A stretch of DNA of 64,000 nt from an uncultured Bacilli bacterium (GTDB lineage: Bacteria > Bacillota_I > Bacilli_A > RF39 > UBA660), in NCBI GenBank assembly GCA_934101625.1, contig CAKORV010000001.1, positions 2,121 through 66,120 of the forward strand, given 5' to 3'. The first letter of the stretch is position 1. Each line of letters starts with the position of its first letter. A model generated the notes under the pieces. It did not search any database. It saw only the letters and a list, made by a program, of their open reading frames with translations, and was not told the origin of the DNA. The position numbers were made by a program, and so were the translations under genes. This document shows, in pieces, positions 15,124 through 30,578 of this stretch.

Positions 15124-16209
15124 ATGTATGATATAAAAAAATATGAAAAACTTATATATGGAGAAGAAGTTGTACCGGATATCATAACTGAAGAGTGGTT
15201 AAAATATGCTTTAAGAAATGAAAAATTTAAGCAATGGGGATTTGCTTTTAGTGATTTAAGTGGCAAAAAGTTTGTTGGAGAATTTAGTGATGAAATCGTT
15301 AGACAAGTGAATTATTCAACTGCAACAAAGTTTCCAGATAATCATCCTTTTAAGTTTAATAGTAATTACTTTAAGACAACTACAGATATTGAATTGTTAC
15401 ATAAAGAAGGACTAAAGGGTGATGGAATTAAAATTGCTGTAATTGATAATGGTTTTAAAGTTACTCCAGGTGAATTAGAAGGTAAGATTAAAAATTATTA
15501 TGAAAGTTATGGTTCAAGAGGAGAACATTTTCATGGTGAGGTTGTTTTGTCTTACTTAGTTGGAAAAAATATTGGTGTTGTTCCAAATGCTGAGATAGAT
15601 TTTTATGATATTAATCCGAATTATTATGAAGAACATCCAGAATTAGTTACATCTGATGCTAGAACATTTTTTGGACAATTAACATATTCAAAATTATTAG
15701 AAATATATAATAGAAACTTAAATGGAGAGGGTATTAGGATTGTTAATATTAGTAATGGATATGGTAAAGCGTTAGGAGAAAAATATGAACAACTAAAAAG
15801 TAAACTTAGAGAAACTGGTTGCGAAGTTATAGATTCAAACGAGTTTGCTAAAAACTTTACTGTAGTTAATATGGATTTAAACAATAGTCAATATTATTTA
15901 AGTGATTGGCAAAAATCAAATGTTGAACTTGCAAAAGAAAAGATAATGGTTCCATGTAGTGAAATGATACCTCTTTGGGGAAGTCAATCTGATTATATGT
16001 TTCACGGGAATAATACATTTAGTTGGGGAATACCAAAACTATGTGGAATTTATGCATTAGCTTTGGAAGTTGATCCGAAATTAACATTTGAAGAGTTTAC
16101 TAAAGTTGCTAAAGAAACGACTGTTAATGTTGATGGATTTAATGTTATAAATGCAAAGGCAATTATTGAGCAAATTTCTTTAAATTTAGATAGTGAAAGA
16201 TCATTATAA
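15124..16209 (+). CDS. intracellular subtilase (S8)-like peptidase
   Basis: No signal peptide. Candidate triad: D in IKIAVIDNGF, H in EHFHGEVV, N in ISNGYG, S in NTFSWGIPKLCGIYALA. ATG 15124 lies 6 nt after AGGTG (track ORF starts at GTG 15115). Confidence 0.5.
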   Translation: MYDIKKYEKLIYGEEVVPDIITEEWLKYALRNEKFKQWGFAFSDLSGKKFVGEFSDEIVRQVNYSTATKFPDNHPFKFNSNYFKTTTDIELLHKEGLKGDGIKIAVIDNGFKVTPGELEGKIKNYYESYGSRGEHFHGEVVLSYLVGKNIGVVPNAEIDFYDINPNYYEEHPELVTSDARTFFGQLTYSKLLEIYNRNLNGEGIRIVNISNGYGKALGEKYEQLKSKLRETGCEVIDSNEFAKNFTVVNMDLNNSQYYLSDWQKSNVELAKEKIMVPCSEMIPLWGSQSDYMFHGNNTFSWGIPKLCGIYALALEVDPKLTFEEFTKVAKETTVNVDGFNVINAKAIIEQISLNLDSERSL

Positions 16210-16223
16210 AAAACTAGCAGAGG

Positions 16224-16568
16224 CTAGTTTTTGTCTTTTAAAAATCTTTTTAATAGGAATGTCATAAAGTATGGGAATGTATAAAATTTTCTATTAAATC
16301 CTATGTTTTTATTTCCTAATTTTATACCATATTTTATTTCTTTAAATGTATTCCTTTCTATTAGTTTATTTAAACTTTTTGTACTATTGTCATTTGCTTT
16401 TACTTCAACTGGAATTAGTGAATCTGTACTTTTTATAGTAAAAAAATTACTTACACCAAATTCTATAAATTTCACCGTTATATTTACACCAAAATCTTTA
16501 CTTTTTACCTCACAAATTATACCTTTTAAAAAAAACACAGAATTTCTGTGTTTATAAACTTGGGCCAC
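16224..16568 (-). pseudogene. 3' remnant of an AAA/DUF4143 ATPase gene (ATPase domain missing)
   Basis: ...SLIPVEVKANDNSTKSLNKLI...YGIKLGNKNIGFNRKFYTFPYFMTFLL matches only the C-terminal (I)P(I/V)EVK block of DUF4143 proteins. The upstream part is replaced by the 16552-17388 gene. Confidence 0.5.
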
Positions 16569-17388
16569 CTTGCATATTGTCCTTTTGAATTATTATTTCT
16601 AACATACTAATTATTTGATTATCTTTATCTAATTTATTAATTAATTCTTGTTTTTCTTCATTTGTCATATTAGGATTATTTAGTATATCTTTTTTATATT
16701 GTTCAATTAAATCTCTATAATCATTTAGTTCTTTTTGATTAGTTACTTTTTTTTCTTTTAATTTTTCAATTTCTTCTGTTAAAGAGTTAACTTTTACTTT
16801 TTGTTTTTCTTTTTCAAATTTCATTGTTATTTCTTTAGTTTGTTCTTCAATTGATTTTGTTTCTAGTTTTTCTTGTAGGAATAGTTTTTCAAACTCTTTT
16901 AATTCAGGGTGTTTATTACAAATATCTTTAATGTGTGAAACTGTCTTGTTATAATCATCCGAATATTCATCAACATTAGCTGTTATTGTACTAAATGTTC
17001 TTATAATACTTTCTATGTCTTTTTCAAATAAATCTTGATGTCTTTCTTTGTATTCAGTTATATTATCAATTTTTAATAGGTTGTTTTTAGTTTGCTCTAA
17101 TTCTTTTAAGTTCATTATAACTTTAGCGCGAGTTTCAAATTTTTCTTTTAGCTCTTTCAAGTCTGGTTGAGCATTAATTAATTTATCTACTAGTTCATTA
17201 GCTTTAGTTATATCTGCATCATCAAGTGTACTAGCTTCCATTATAATTTCTTCATACATATTTGTTAAACCTTTTATTAAATCTTCATAGTCAGTGGGAC
17301 TATTGGATTTAAATTCATCTAAATCTCTTATTACTCTGATTTCATCAAGTATTTTTTCAAATTTTTCTAAATTACTTTCCATATACAT
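16552..17388 (-). CDS. acidic coiled-coil protein, function unknown
   Basis: AGGAGAG RBS before ATG 17388. 278 aa rich in E/K/L heptad-like sequence. No recognisable catalytic motif. Confidence 0.5.
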   Translation of the reverse strand: MYMESNLEKFEKILDEIRVIRDLDEFKSNSPTDYEDLIKGLTNMYEEIIMEASTLDDADITKANELVDKLINAQPDLKELKEKFETRAKVIMNLKELEQTKNNLLKIDNITEYKERHQDLFEKDIESIIRTFSTITANVDEYSDDYNKTVSHIKDICNKHPELKEFEKLFLQEKLETKSIEEQTKEITMKFEKEKQKVKVNSLTEEIEKLKEKKVTNQKELNDYRDLIEQYKKDILNNPNMTNEEKQELINKLDKDNQIISMLEIIIQKDNMQGGPSL

Positions 17389-26158: not shown

Positions 26159-27916
26159 ATGGCTAAAAGAGAATTAGATGAAAAAACACAAATAATTGAA
26201 GAAGAAGGATTATATTTGGAAGAACCTGATAATAGTAAAAAGAAAAGGTTAATACTAATAATTATTATGTTAGTAATTTTATTGATTGTTTTGGTAAGTT
26301 ATGGAACTTATTCATGGTTGGATTGGTATCATAAAAGAATGATGATTAATATTGATATTAATCATGATGGAATATGTGATGTTAACTGTGATACCAATAA
26401 AGATGGAAAACCAGATTATAATGTAAGTCTAAAGAACTTTAAAAAGAGAAAGACACCTTTTTTTAATATAGATAAAGATGGAGATGGAAAACCTGATTTT
26501 AATCTTATTGATCAAGATACTAATGGAGATGGCAAGTGTGACTTAAATTGTGATATAGATAATGATGGTTGGCCTGAGACTAATTTAGACTTAGATGGTG
26601 ATGGAAAATGCGATTTAAATTGTGATACTAATGGTGATGGTAAGTGCGATTTAAATTGTGATACTGATAATGATCAAAAGTGTAATTATAATTGTGATAC
26701 TAATGGTGATGGAAAATGCGATTTAAATTGTGATACTAATGGAGATGGTAAGTGCGATTTAAATTGTGACACTAATGGAGATGGCAAGTGCGATTTAAAT
26801 TGTGACACTAATGGTGATGGCAAGTGCGATTTAAATTGTGATACTAATGGAGACGGAAAATGTGATTTAAACTGTGACACTAATGGAGATGGCAAGTGCG
26901 ATTTAAATTGTGATACTAATGGAGATGGAAAATGCGATTTGAATTGTGATACTAATGGAGATGGAAAATGCGATTTAAATTGTGATACTAACGGAGACGG
27001 AAAGTGTGACTTAAATTGCGATACTAACGGAGATGGCAAATGCGATTTGAATTGTGATACTAACGGAGATGGCAAGTGCGATTTAAACTGTGATACCAAT
27101 GGTGATGGAAAATGCGATTTGAATTGCGATACTAATGGAGATGGAAAATGCGATTTAAATTGCGATACTAATGGAGATGGAAAATGCGATTTAAATTGTG
27201 ATACTAACGGAGATGGCAAGTGTGATTTAAATTGCGATACTAACGGAGACGGAAAGTGTGATTTAAACTGTGATACCAATGGTGATGGCAAGTGCGATTT
27301 AAATTGTGATACTAACGGAGATGGCAAGTGCGATTTAAACTGTGATACTAATGGAGACGGAAAGTGTGACTTAAATTGCGATACTAACGGAGACGGAAAG
27401 TGTGATTTAAACTGTGATACTGATGGAGATGGTAAATGCGATAAAGAATGTGATACTGATGGTGATGGCAAATGTGATGTAAATTGTTCAAGTGCAGATA
27501 TAGATGATAAGGGAGAATATAGTATAACATTCTTAGATAAAAATAGTATGAATTATACTTCTATTAAACCAGGTTGGAGAGCATCTAAAACATTTACTGT
27601 AACTAATGATACTAATGCTACATTAAAATATGATATTTATTGGGATGAACTAATTAATGAATTTACTGAAACTAATAATTTATATTTTGGATTAATAAGA
27701 GATAGTAAAACAGTTATAGATATTTCGTCTAGTAGAGTTCCTTATCCAAATGGAAATAATAGAAGAGTACTTATGTTAAGTAATGTAGTTTTAAATCCAA
27801 AAGAAACACATACATATGAAATAACTTTATTATTTAAAGAGACTAATCAAAATCAAGATGTTGATAGAGGTAAAACATTTAGTGGTAAATTACAAATAGT
27901 TAATAAAGGAATGTAA
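26159..27916 (+). CDS. N-terminally anchored protein: DxDxDG/Cys-rich thrombospondin-type-3-like repeat stalk plus C-terminal TasA/camelysin-like module
   Basis: AGGGAG RBS. Cytoplasmic EEEGLYLEE, then a TM (LILIIIMLVILLIVLVSYGTYSWL). About 27 units of 12 aa (CDLNCDTNGDGK). C-terminal IKPGWRASKTFTVTN...KETNQNQDVDRGKTFSGKLQIV. Confidence 0.7.
   Translation: MAKRELDEKTQIIEEEGLYLEEPDNSKKKRLILIIIMLVILLIVLVSYGTYSWLDWYHKRMMINIDINHDGICDVNCDTNKDGKPDYNVSLKNFKKRKTPFFNIDKDGDGKPDFNLIDQDTNGDGKCDLNCDIDNDGWPETNLDLDGDGKCDLNCDTNGDGKCDLNCDTDNDQKCNYNCDTNGDGKCDLNCDTNGDGKCDLNCDTNGDGKCDLNCDTNGDGKCDLNCDTNGDGKCDLNCDTNGDGKCDLNCDTNGDGKCDLNCDTNGDGKCDLNCDTNGDGKCDLNCDTNGDGKCDLNCDTNGDGKCDLNCDTNGDGKCDLNCDTNGDGKCDLNCDTNGDGKCDLNCDTNGDGKCDLNCDTNGDGKCDLNCDTNGDGKCDLNCDTNGDGKCDLNCDTNGDGKCDLNCDTNGDGKCDLNCDTDGDGKCDKECDTDGDGKCDVNCSSADIDDKGEYSITFLDKNSMNYTSIKPGWRASKTFTVTNDTNATLKYDIYWDELINEFTETNNLYFGLIRDSKTVIDISSSRVPYPNGNNRRVLMLSNVVLNPKETHTYEITLLFKETNQNQDVDRGKTFSGKLQIVNKGM
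26585..27484 (+). repeat. in-frame 36-bp tandem repeat array (25 units; 20 core units at 26693-27412 encode identical CDTNGDGKCDLN)
   Basis: Unit starts at 26585+36n. DNA of the core units differs only at third codon positions. Confidence 0.95.
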
Positions 27917-27926
27917 GGGTGATATA

Positions 27927-29624
27927 ATGGCTAGTAATAAATTAAGTAAAGAAGAATTAAAAATCGTTGATGAAGATGGTTTATATTTTGAACAACATAA
28001 TGAAAAAAACAAAAAACAAAAGGTGTTGACCTATATAGTATTTATATTATTTATGATAGTTGTTGGAATAACTACATTTATAGTTGTTAATTATTTCTTA
28101 TCTAAAAGACAAACTTTGAATATTGATTTAGATGGAGATGGATGGGCAGATTTAAATATAGATACTGATGGAGATGGTATTTGCAATGTAAATTGTGATA
28201 CTAATAATGATAATAAACCTGATTATAATATAAGTTATAAAGGACTTAATTATGCGTATTTTAATTTAGATACTAATGGTGATAAAATTGCTGATAAAAA
28301 TTTAATTAATTTGGATACTAATAATGATGGAAAGTGTGATTTGAATTGTGATTTAGATAAAGATGGATTTCCTGAAATTAATTTAGATTTTGATGGTAAT
28401 GGTAAAGCAGATTTAAATATTGATTTAGATGGTGATGGAAAATGTGACATTAATTGTGATGTTATTGGAATTAAAGAGCCTAATTTAAATGTAGATATTG
28501 ATGGTGATAATAAGCCCGATGTTAATATTGATATTGATGGAGATAATAAACCTGATGTTAATATTGCTTATGGAAATGACTATAAAAAGGCAGTATTTAA
28601 TATAGATAAAGATGGAGATGGAAAAGAAGATTTTAATTTAATTAATCAAAAGCCTAAAAAAGCAACTGCTACTTGTGGTATAAATTGTGATAAAGATGGA
28701 GATAATATTCCTGATATTAATATTGATATGGATGGAGATGGAAGCCCAGATTTAAATTTAGCAACAATAGAAGATGGGATGGCATACTTAAATATTGATT
28801 TAGATGATGATGGAATTGCTGATATGAATGTTGATACAGATGGTGATTTGATGCCAAATATTAATGTTGATGTTGATGGAGATGGAAAGGCAGATACTAA
28901 TTTAGATGTTAATAAAGATGGAAAAGCAGATGTTAATGTAGATACTGATGGAGATTGGAAAGCAGATTTTAATTTATTAAATCAAGATACTAATAGTGAT
29001 GGTAAATGTGATTTAAATTGTGATAAAAATAAAGATAATTGGCCAGATTATAATATTGATTTAAATGGTGATGGTATTCCTAATATGAATATTTCACTTG
29101 TTAGTGAAAATAGTGGAGATGCAAATAGGTCTGCTAATAATGATGGTAAGATTGATACTAATGTAATTAATGAATATGTTTTATATGGAAGAGATGTTGT
29201 TAAAAATGTTGAAATATCTAATGGAGAAAGTAAACATTATGCATTATCATTAGTTGATAGTGGTAACAAATTAGATGTTAATAAATTAATTCCTGGCTGG
29301 AAGGATAGTAAAGCATTTACTATTAAAAATACATCTAATGAAGTTAGAACATATGAAGTTGGATTTACTGATATTATAAATGATTTTTCTTGGGAAAATA
29401 GATTATATTTTGGAGTTAAATTAAATGGACAAATTGTAATAGATCCAAATTTAGGAAGAGTTGGATATGCTGTAAATAATGGAGAAACATTTATGAAGAA
29501 TATGACTATTAATCCAGGTGAAACTCATTCTTATCAAATTGATTATGAATTTAAAAATACTGGTTCTATAAATGATAGTAATAAATTATTTTATGCTAGA
29601 CTTGATGTAGTTGTATTAAAGTAA
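27927..29624 (+). CDS. paralogous stalk protein: degenerate DxDxDG repeats plus C-terminal TasA/camelysin-like module
   Basis: DEDGLYFEQ then a TM. NIDLDGDGWADLNIDTDGDGICNVNCDTNND... throughout. C-terminal LIPGWKDSKAFTIKN...NPGETHSYQIDYEFKNTG...LFYARLDVV. Confidence 0.7.
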   Translation: MASNKLSKEELKIVDEDGLYFEQHNEKNKKQKVLTYIVFILFMIVVGITTFIVVNYFLSKRQTLNIDLDGDGWADLNIDTDGDGICNVNCDTNNDNKPDYNISYKGLNYAYFNLDTNGDKIADKNLINLDTNNDGKCDLNCDLDKDGFPEINLDFDGNGKADLNIDLDGDGKCDINCDVIGIKEPNLNVDIDGDNKPDVNIDIDGDNKPDVNIAYGNDYKKAVFNIDKDGDGKEDFNLINQKPKKATATCGINCDKDGDNIPDINIDMDGDGSPDLNLATIEDGMAYLNIDLDDDGIADMNVDTDGDLMPNINVDVDGDGKADTNLDVNKDGKADVNVDTDGDWKADFNLLNQDTNSDGKCDLNCDKNKDNWPDYNIDLNGDGIPNMNISLVSENSGDANRSANNDGKIDTNVINEYVLYGRDVVKNVEISNGESKHYALSLVDSGNKLDVNKLIPGWKDSKAFTIKNTSNEVRTYEVGFTDIINDFSWENRLYFGVKLNGQIVIDPNLGRVGYAVNNGETFMKNMTINPGETHSYQIDYEFKNTGSINDSNKLFYARLDVVVLK

Positions 29625-29789: not shown

Positions 29790-30416
29790 ATGGGAGAAAA
29801 CAAAGGTCAAACTATTTTCTTATCAGTAATTGGTATTGCTACATTATTAGTTGCAATAATCGGAGCTACATTCGCTTATTTCACTAGTACTGCTGGTACT
29901 GGAACTGGTAATGTTGATTTAACTGCTAAGACAGTTGCAGGATTTACTGCTACTGCTGGAAGTATAACTAGTGATGAAACTATTTTACCTGGTTGGAGTA
30001 AATCTGCTGATATTTCAGTTGCTACAACTGATAAAACAGATGTACCTTATGACTATAGTTGTGTTCTTAGTGTAGATGCTACTACAACTTTAACTGATAT
30101 GTATGTTAGTGTTGCTGCTGCTGCAGCTGATGCTGCTCCTGCTGGAGATATCAAAGCTGGTACAAATACTGAATTACAAGCTGGTAAAGAAGTTGAATTA
30201 TTAGCTGGTACTGTTGGTAATACTACTGGTGCTGAAACTAAAGCTGCAACATACACTATTAAGTTCAAAGAAACTGGTGCTGCTCAAACTAACCAAGGTG
30301 CTAAGTTTAAAGCAACTGTAACTTGTAAATCTACATTATCTGGTGGTACTAATGGTGTATTCTATACTAATGATGCTAAAACTGGTACAACAACTAAACC
30401 AGATGCTCAATGGTAA
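29790..30416 (+). CDS. secreted TasA/camelysin-like protein with SipW-type signal peptide (candidate major subunit)
   Basis: MGENKGQTIFLSVIGIATLLVAIIGATFAYFTSTAG. ILPGWSKSADISV...KETGAAQTNQGAKFKATVTC. Ala/Thr/Gly-rich. Own promoter and terminator. Confidence 0.6.
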   Translation: MGENKGQTIFLSVIGIATLLVAIIGATFAYFTSTAGTGTGNVDLTAKTVAGFTATAGSITSDETILPGWSKSADISVATTDKTDVPYDYSCVLSVDATTTLTDMYVSVAAAAADAAPAGDIKAGTNTELQAGKEVELLAGTVGNTTGAETKAATYTIKFKETGAAQTNQGAKFKATVTCKSTLSGGTNGVFYTNDAKTGTTTKPDAQW

Positions 30417-30469
30417 TAGTTTAGATTAACATAGTTAATTTACTATAGAAGTAATAGTATTGAAAATAT

Positions 30470-30510
30470 AAACTCTGATTTATGATTAATTGAATTAGAG
30501 TTTTTATTTT
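30470..30510 (+). terminator. intrinsic terminator
   Basis: AAACTCTGATT...AATTAGAGTTT stem followed by TTATTTT. Confidence 0.55.
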
Positions 30511-30578
30511 GCATTTTTATATTGTGTTTTTTTGAAATAAATGGTATTATTTTAATAGATAAAGATAAGGGATAAGAT

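Follow-up and report, generated by a model that had tools for sequence, protein, structure and literature searches.

One peptide, many codings: purifying selection and a shared pool of silent variants in a 20-unit repeat array of a gut bacterial stalk gene

How can a tandem repeat keep a single peptide through twenty consecutive units while its DNA varies at every codon? The question is raised by the gene for P0001, a predicted membrane-anchored stalk protein encoded in a 64,000-nucleotide stretch (the window) of contig CAKORV010000001.1, which belongs to assembly GCA_934101625.1 of an uncultured Bacilli bacterium (RF39; UBA660). We find that the repeat peptide is under protein-level purifying selection and that its coding variation is drawn from a set of 13 silent variants shared among strains and with a sister species. 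We also find that codons avoided elsewhere in the genome are in excess within the array. The parts of the gene needed for the argument, in window coordinates, are:

26159..27916, + strand: gene of the 585-aa membrane-anchored stalk protein P0001 (open reading frame and translation)
26345..26692, + strand: divergent units of the predicted calcium-loop type, with a Cys pair or of Pro/Ile type
26693..27412, + strand: core array, 20 x 36 bp, all CDTNGDGKCDLN, with 12 polymorphic third positions and 16 distinct DNA units
27125..27196, + strand: the sole adjacent pair of DNA-identical units, 27125 = 27161
27413..27484, + strand: two terminal units of variant peptide (CDTDGDGKCDKE, CDTDGDGKCDVN), which anchor the array at its 3' end and are kept in all conspecific alleles

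The core array comprises exactly 20 in-frame units of 36 bp (720 bp), each translating to CDTNGDGKCDLN, and lies within a 24.8-copy, 36-bp array reported by Tandem Repeats Finder at 26595-27487. A 21st unit with the consensus peptide is found at 26621, separated from the core by a CDTDNDQKCNYN unit at 26657 that forms its 5' edge. A first-pass annotation, made from the sequence, had described 20 consecutive units with one peptide, polymorphism in all 12 codons and no replacement in 240 codons, and all of this is borne out. The polymorphism occupies 12 sites, one per codon and only at third codon positions, and amounts to 13 variant codons, 13/13 of them synonymous. The alleles are tgt/tgc, gat/gac, act/acc, aat/aac, gga/ggt and gat/gac at codons 1-6, and gga/ggc/ggt, aag/aaa, tgc/tgt, gat/gac, tta/ttg and aat/aac at codons 7-12. 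The same annotation had noted few DNA-identical pairs and cited two, 26765 = 26873 and 27125 = 27161; both are real, and two further pairs that it did not list (27053 = 27305 and 27233 = 27377) bring the number to four. The adjacent pair is the trace of a recent one-unit duplication. Units differ on average at 4.43 of 36 nt, independently of the distance between them (4.32 at lag 1), and the longest exact repeat inside the array is 50 nt.

The source genome (G000) is a metagenome-assembled genome (MAG) of 1.1 Mb in 52 contigs, with 25.5% GC and 94% completeness, and the array, or the number and order of its units, might have been produced by collapse, chimeric paths or strain mixtures during assembly. 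The 52 contigs would fit such an origin, as would the orthologous arrays of the sister species G001 and G003, which sit at contig ends, an internal stop in one conspecific allele (L024), and a 100-N gap with a frameshift in another (L025). The 50-nt exact repeat is also slightly below a common maximum k of 55, and a collapse of exact multi-unit duplications would be invisible. Against this, an independent ENA MEGAHIT k141 contig (L021) is identical over 7758 bp, the whole 1758-bp gene and its array included, and every k-mer of at least 55 nt within the array is unique which, with a longest exact repeat of 50 nt, makes the path through it unambiguous. The L024 scaffold, from another sample, holds 19 units, the last seven of which are colinear with the G000 array with 1 nt different, and assembly errors would not fall exclusively on third codon positions. 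We therefore take the array as real on the strength of the identical contig, the unique k-mers and the colinear scaffold, and consider an artefact very improbable. The first-pass annotation had wished to see collapse or expansion by assembly checked: a second assembly reproduces the array exactly, but the figure of 20 units may be a lower bound, as exact multi-unit duplications would collapse unseen.

How strongly is the peptide constrained? Random point mutations in the codons of this peptide are silent in only 18-31% of cases, which makes 13 silent variants out of 13 improbable under neutrality (with kappa = 1, P = 1.6e-10; with kappa = 8, P = 2e-7). The proportion of differing synonymous sites (pS) within the array is 0.70 and that of nonsynonymous sites (pN) is 0; in the adjacent C-terminal domain, compared between sister species, pS is 0.36 and the nonsynonymous divergence (dN) is 0.18. 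Protein-level purifying selection thus acts on the repeat peptide. The comparison of nonsynonymous with synonymous change among units proposed in the first-pass annotation supplies these two array values, but its count of 240 codons is pseudo-replication: the units are not independent, and the evidence reduces to 13 silent against 0 replacement variants. Treating repeat units as independent evidence overstates constraint.

That annotation had placed every residue under very strong selection. A strict version, in which each of the 12 residues is indispensable and 20 anciently diverged units have independently resisted every replacement, would account for 240 codons without a replacement alongside saturated silent divergence, and C1, D2, D6, C9 and N12 are unchanged even in G001. 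The G001 array, however, has at least 37 units with 15 different peptides, and its 19 replacement and 16 silent variant codons differ from the 0:13 of the G000 array (Fisher P = 5e-4). Its replacements fall at positions 3, 4, 5, 7, 8, 10 and 11, leaving positions 1, 2, 6, 9 and 12 untouched, and in G003 position 5 is K, N or D and position 8 is R. Conspecific alleles likewise harbour departures from the consensus: the replacements G5D and C1S, a TGA stop, and a CETN unit that must be old, as G001 has it too. Moreover, the Cys/Cys pair is exchangeable for Pro/Ile across the family, and the units are recombinants of one pool rather than independent lineages. We therefore regard the strict version as unlikely: selection on the peptide stands (13:0), its extension to every residue does not, and the free amino-acid variation in orthologous repeats that the annotation had named as contrary evidence is partly present, in G001 and in the conspecific variants. 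The exact consensus in G000 is the outcome of strong but non-absolute selection together with which units this allele retained.

We then compared the array among conspecific assemblies, G000 and four others with 71 units in all, whose flanks are 99.2-99.4% identical to those of G000 with a synonymous divergence (dS) of 0.02-0.04. This carries out the comparison of repeat number and synonymous patterns suggested in the first-pass annotation. G000 has 20 units and the others have 5, 6, 19 and at least 21. The 71 pooled units include 45 distinct DNA units built from exactly the same 13 silent variant codons; no new silent variant appears in the 51 further units, so that the synonymous alphabet is closed, and all 13 variants are also present in G001. 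Even the 5-unit allele is polymorphic at 12/12 sites. Removing 14 internal units from the 19-unit L024 array yields this allele (L022), with an exact match of 35 nt at the junction. In the four-gamete test, 22 site pairs show all four combinations, and the minimum number of recombination events (Rm) inside the 36-nt unit is at least 5. The four-gamete pairs, the closed variant set and the deletion junction together indicate that the array changes by recombination and deletion between units, drawing on one fixed pool of silent variants. Hypermutation, or a cassette of the diversity-generating retroelement type, was considered and rejected: G000 and L024 share the order of their last seven units and differ there at 1 nt, a similarity close to the 99.2-99.4% of the flanks; the variant set is closed; and the changes affect third positions only and include both T/C and A/G.

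The L024 allele (scaffold ERZ28614471) carries, at 1471-1578, an in-frame TGA derived from GGA together with a Cys-to-Ser unit within its array. Because of this TGA, gene callers split the gene in two, and the allele is either pseudogenised or an assembly error in a strain mixture.

We think it probable that selection at the protein level, combined with the reshuffling of a small and old set of silent variants, explains the array. The 720-bp core would form the middle of a length-variable spacer, the stalk, that holds a TasA-like domain away from the cell. The calcium loop predicted for each unit would be tied to the next by a cysteine pair, C9(i)-x3-C1(i+1), with a Pro/Ala...Ile/Val/Leu contact in its place in other units of the family. 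Purifying selection would remove replacement changes at the protein level, and the DNA differences would represent 13 synonymous variants that form a small, old and closed set. These variants would be shuffled, and the copy number altered, by recombination within the array, by unequal crossing-over and by deletion at short homologies, and the retention of particular units in this strain would also contribute to the absence of replacements. The spacer function of the stalk and the direction of selection are parts of this scheme that we infer.

Several observations weigh against this explanation or mark its limits. Fold constraints alone do not explain the exact consensus of G000, given that G001 tolerates replacements at 7/12 positions. 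All compared arrays come from short-read metagenome assemblies, in which only heterogeneous arrays are traversed, and the copy-number differences could partly be assembler products, as the L024 stop and the L025 gap and frameshift illustrate. For the proposed cysteine link, a search of the 94%-complete genome for DsbA-like, DSBA, DsbB, VKOR and DsbD_TM proteins found none. Finally, frequent neutral recombination should homogenise the DNA, yet 12/12 sites are polymorphic in every allele, and the within-array pS of 0.70 is higher than the ~0.61 that random picks from the genome's codon usage would give. As all sites stay polymorphic at a pS above this expectation, selection and shuffling alone are incomplete as an account.

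What is lacking is seen most clearly in codon usage. The G+C content at third codon positions (GC3) of the array is 0.275, against 0.103 expected from genome codon usage, and rare G/C-ending codons take 53 of the 160 two-fold sites when 18.5 are expected (~3-fold), a count that 20,000 simulations never brought above 37. The excess is not seen in the neighbouring paralogue P0002 or in the remainder of the P0001 gene. It recurs in all conspecific alleles and in G001 (GC3 of 0.28-0.31) and was not found in the short identical-peptide runs of more distant species; a search of 78 related loci for long peptide-identical runs yielded only runs of 3-5 units. Translational selection is excluded as the cause, because the proxies for highly expressed genes (EF-Tu, EF-G, DnaK, GAPDH and RpoB/C) avoid TGC, GGC, ACC and TTG even more than the rest of the genome. 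An array-specific force keeps rare codons at about three times expectation and every silent site polymorphic. Its cause could be selection against DNA identity, or a corresponding deletion sieve, or else GC-biased gene conversion, and the two account for the excess equally well.

The first of these would be a natural form of the 'codon scrambling' used by engineers, in which heterogeneity is maintained by organism-level selection or by a sieve that deletes DNA-identical neighbours, as slippage or recombination would make a long homogeneous array collapse. A unit can differ at a two-fold site only by adopting the avoided G/C-ending codon, which would explain the 53/160 rare codons against 18.5 expected, and heterozygosity over the two-fold sites sums to 3.07 as against 1.62. 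It also fits that these codons are avoided in the highly expressed proxies and in the diverged paralogue, that 12/12 sites are polymorphic in all alleles including the 5-unit one and that of G001, that within-array pS (0.70) exceeds between-species pS (0.36), that the longest exact match is just 50 nt, and that only the genus with long arrays shows the GC3 excess. Engineers stabilise repetitive genes by the same means (PMC4403262). The arrangement of the units speaks otherwise. Adjacent units are no more different than distant ones (4.32 at lag 1; 4.43 overall), 21% of random unit orders equal or beat the actual order in longest exact match (shuffle P = 0.21), and there are 16 distinct units where free allele shuffling would give 19.4, with one adjacent pair identical. 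ACA, which makes up 44% of genomic Thr codons, is used at codon 3 in 0/71 units, and CTN codons for Leu are absent. In addition, 14 units were still lost across a 35-nt match, and short-read assembly itself favours heterogeneous arrays. Selection for reduced nucleotide identity, which the first-pass annotation had offered as an alternative or additional reading, therefore draws support from the rare codons and meets contrary evidence in the missing neighbour effect, the non-optimised order and the 14-unit loss. We keep it as a possible, tentative explanation, and are similarly tentative on the more general proposal that a DNA-level force keeps all silent sites polymorphic beyond the age of the species and recruits codons avoided in a 25% GC genome.

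Alternatively, heteroduplexes between misaligned units may be resolved by mismatch repair biased to G/C, with selection acting besides at the protein level. Such GC-biased gene conversion would push T-to-C and A-to-G silent variants to intermediate frequency against AT-biased mutation. In line with this, 11/13 variant alleles are G or C and 10/13 are transitions, and the G/C-ending option is used where a choice exists (ACC not ACA, GGC at codon 7, and TTG). The enrichment is limited to the recombining array, with none in the diverged paralogue or the rest of the gene; inter-unit recombination is directly evidenced, and the unit order shows no optimisation. Nevertheless, no G/C variant has become fixed at any site in any allele, codon 5 varies between GGA and GGT with no G/C variant in this species, and the peptide-identical runs of other family species are without a GC3 excess. 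With alternative silent variants available at just four sites, the data are too sparse to test the bias. On this evidence, GC-biased conversion appears a somewhat doubtful explanation of the array. The combination of protein-level selection and reshuffling remains the account we prefer, with an array-specific force acting in addition.

The array sequence has two further properties. T_TTA_AA[TC], which has the X_XXY_YYZ form of a candidate -1 slippery heptamer, ends 15/20 units as their final 7 nt (26722-27412; 18 sites in the gene). The -1 frame after the candidate heptamer meets TGA within three codons, and the silent GAC and TTG variants abolish the heptamer. The opposite strand carries a long open frame:

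26686..27471, - strand: antisense open frame of 261 aa with PSPLVSQFKSH[FL] repeats

We rejected this frame as a gene, since it is open solely across the array through its periodicity; automated annotation could call it as one.

We next turn to what the units may look like as protein. P0001 has 54 cysteines, all beyond the transmembrane helix and arranged as 27 CxxxC pairs, in agreement with the first-pass remark that the stalk would carry more than 40 extracytoplasmic cysteines, an unusual number. Each 12-residue unit would constitute one EF-hand-like Dx[DN]xDG calcium loop, judging from its residue pattern: D2, D6 and N12 are invariant, and N4, G7 and D10 nearly so. Among 61 family members, position 9 and position 1 of the next unit are both Cys 145 times and both another residue 496 times, mostly Pro/Ala with Ile/Val/Leu; one alone is Cys just 4 times (Fisher P ~1e-140). 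This strict covariation argues that the CxxxC pair is one structural element, a staple between consecutive loops, and by the same sequence comparison the staple appears interchangeable with a Pro...Ile contact across the family. Calcium binding by the stalk units is predicted, as is disulfide formation by the CxxxC pairs.

The protein as a whole is delimited by two further features:

26246..26341, + strand: predicted signal-anchor / transmembrane helix, ~residues 30-61, after SKKKR (sequence and AlphaFold2 helix at 25-61)
27485..27913, + strand: C-terminal TasA-like jelly-roll domain with a PGW..SK.F motif (Foldseek)

P0001 thus starts with an acidic, predicted cytoplasmic N-terminus ending in SKKKR and continues with one transmembrane helix, a stalk of ~31 Dx[DN]x[DN]G units, each of twelve residues, and a beta-sandwich domain of ~140 aa at the C-terminus. 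By the positive-inside rule, the predicted topology is N-in and stalk-out. An AlphaFold2 model of a 405-aa allele (P0003; alignment of 63 sequences) has a mean predicted local distance difference test (pLDDT) score of 84, with a helix at residues 25-61, a repeat region at pLDDT ~90 without stalk helices, and a C-terminal beta domain. In every unit of this model, L11 and the following C1 lie in beta-bridges. Foldseek places the TasA fibre 8aur_A first among its matches to the model (E 1.1e-4, probability 1.00) and the TasA-like archaeal bundling pilin 7ueg fourth; the TM-scores (template modelling) are low because the query contained the stalk.

Downstream, the following related genes are found on the same strand:

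27927..29624, + strand: paralogue P0002, 565 aa, of the same architecture, with diverged units mostly of Pro/Ile type and 5 CxxxC pairs
28494..28565, + strand: two tandem DIDGDNKPDVNI units in P0002, with 3 synonymous differences
29790..31789, + strand: three small homologues of the C-terminal domain, of 208, 193 and 204 aa, presumed fibre subunits

The DIDGDNKPDVNI pair differs by ggt/gga, aag/aaa and ccc/cct, just as the first-pass annotation had described for the paralogue. In a conspecific comparison with L023, the P0002 repeat region at 28613-28813 shows a burst of divergence (40 mismatches in 200 nt), which suggests that the P0002 units are also rearranged between strains. A further burst lies in the Ala/Thr/Gly-rich TasA-like gene at 29790-30416, which is ~27% diverged from L023 6126-6737 (~164 mismatches in 600 nt) between flanks that are ~99% identical; its product has 208 aa in one of the two conspecific assemblies and 203 aa in the other. 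Between strains, this putative main subunit of the fibre seems to be either hypervariable or replaced by recombination.

The P0001 C-terminal domain matches the neighbouring 193-aa open reading frame, and two of the three small proteins start with FAYF(T/S) SipW-type signal peptides, a motif that the P0001 signal-anchor is without. A SipW-type (archaeal-type) signal peptidase, with a TIGR02228 match above cut-off, is encoded on another contig (C17 of G000, 16144-16623; L026) and not beside the TasA-like genes of the locus. Matches to the TasA-like domain number 22 in G000, mostly at the C-termini of open frames of 450-620 aa, 28 in G001 and 19 in G003, a large paralogous family of surface proteins for a 1.1-Mb genome.

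These features recall the TapA-SipW-TasA system of Bacillus subtilis: the TasA fibre is the best structural match, and the candidate SipW-type signal peptides encoded next door, with a SipW-type peptidase elsewhere in the genome, may point the same way. In contrast to that system, the locus contains no sipW or tapA. Foldseek supports a TasA-type jelly-roll fold, whereas sequence models stay below threshold: with Peptidase_M73 (PF12389), the P0001 C-terminal domain gave no match and the neighbouring 193-aa protein reached 15.9 bits against 22.5 (E 0.012). By analogy, it is plausible that P0001 acts as a TapA-style anchor of a fibre. To our knowledge, the combination of a calcium-loop stalk with a membrane anchor at the N-terminus is not described for any TasA-family protein.

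The D-x-[DN]-x-D-G-x-x-D spacing of the unit resembles the EF-hand loop, dockerins and thrombospondin type 3 repeats. EF-hand_1 matches four stretches below threshold (21.6 bits against 25.4), over model positions 9-19 of 29, and Dockerin_1 gives a trace match only. Membership of the EF-hand family was rejected, as the matches are below the gathering threshold, the structural model has no stalk helices and flanking EF-hand helices are missing. Thrombospondin type 3 repeats form a helix-free run of calcium loops tied by cysteines, and the stalk would be alike in this respect, its calcium and Cys link being predicted. The TSP_3 and TSP3_bac Pfam models found no match, however, at E <=1 with whole proteins or E <=10 with short segments, and no thrombospondin is among the top 50 Foldseek matches. 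The strict 12-residue period and the single CxxxC pair at each unit junction set the stalk apart from these DxDxDG systems. Whole-protein Pfam/NCBIfam searches returned sub-threshold or compositional matches only (Filamin, SGP and MSCRAMM), and the circumsporozoite protein (CSP) and filamin were rejected as homologues, as their PDB sequence matches are compositional only. The stalk-protein family is widespread in MAGs of uncultured gut Bacilli, 'Tenericutes' and Mycoplasmatota, two same-genus genomes being Hadza gut MAGs; a literature search for TasA, SipW and calcium-repeat proteins in uncultured Bacilli found no paper on it.

As a mode of evolution, the array has closer parallels. Like the SD-repeat R-domains of the staphylococcal adhesins called microbial surface components recognizing adhesive matrix molecules (MSCRAMMs; ClfA, Sdr proteins, Fbl), it consists of short coding repeats in tandem, which make up the stalk of a surface protein in a Gram-positive bacterium, with strain-variable copy number (here 5 to at least 21) and mostly synonymous DNA variation, an evolutionary resemblance and not homology. 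In Staphylococcus lugdunensis Fbl, the R-domain has 54 distinct 18-bp repeats encoding 13 hexapeptides, at a dN/dS of 0.045, and strains carry 9-52 copies (PMC6533592). Here the unit is not an SD dipeptide but a predicted calcium loop of 12 residues that contains Cys, and P0001, unlike MSCRAMMs, has no LPXTG anchor and would be held by its N-terminal transmembrane helix. Membership of the MSCRAMMs (NCBIfam ClfA, ClfB, SdrC and SdrD) was rejected with a best score of 97.3 bits against a cut-off of 1150 (ClfA); the matches to these models, whose cut-offs range from 999 to 2500, are compositional and cover the Asp-rich repeat region only. We know of no rare-codon excess or cross-species sharing of variants, both found here, for SD repeats. 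The pattern is thus already known from staphylococcal adhesin stalks, and is joined here by a new rare-codon excess and by the CxxxC covariation.

The NANP repeats of Plasmodium falciparum CSP offer another parallel, with a long run of identical short peptides in isolate-variable copy number; several synonymous 'repeat allotypes' code for the NANP unit, and recombination within the gene shuffles them. Isolates carry 17-48 copies (PMC6186114). CSP differs from this stalk in being an antigen of a eukaryotic parasite, exposed to immune pressure; its unit has 4 residues, with neither calcium loop nor cysteines. In engineered synonymous recoding, or 'codon scrambling', one repeated peptide is deliberately given non-identical coding DNA so as to prevent deletion and recombination (PMC4403262, PMC13642069). 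That is a design practice rather than a natural system, and the heterogeneity of the present array, whose adaptive value is putative, is far from maximal.

Tandem repeats in the genes of bacterial surface proteins are usually treated as contingency loci, unstable and identical at the DNA level. The array described here, in an uncultured gut bacterium with a reduced genome, shows the opposite regime: a perfectly conserved peptide, a saturated but closed set of silent variants and an excess of avoided codons. Short-read MAGs show such arrays only if these are heterogeneous. The interesting part is the array-specific excess of avoided codons, together with polymorphism that has long persisted at every silent site. 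Should the DNA heterogeneity be selected, the array would be a natural counterpart of the repeat-stabilising recoding used by engineers and a rare clean case of synonymous-site selection for genome stability; if GC-biased gene conversion is responsible instead, an extremely AT-rich lineage would have in it a compact natural reporter of the process. For the protein family, one is led to ask how the cell deals with 27 cysteine pairs when it has no recognisable Dsb system, and the covariation of CxxxC with Pro...Ile provides a testable structural rule for a previously undescribed family of predicted calcium-loop stalks.

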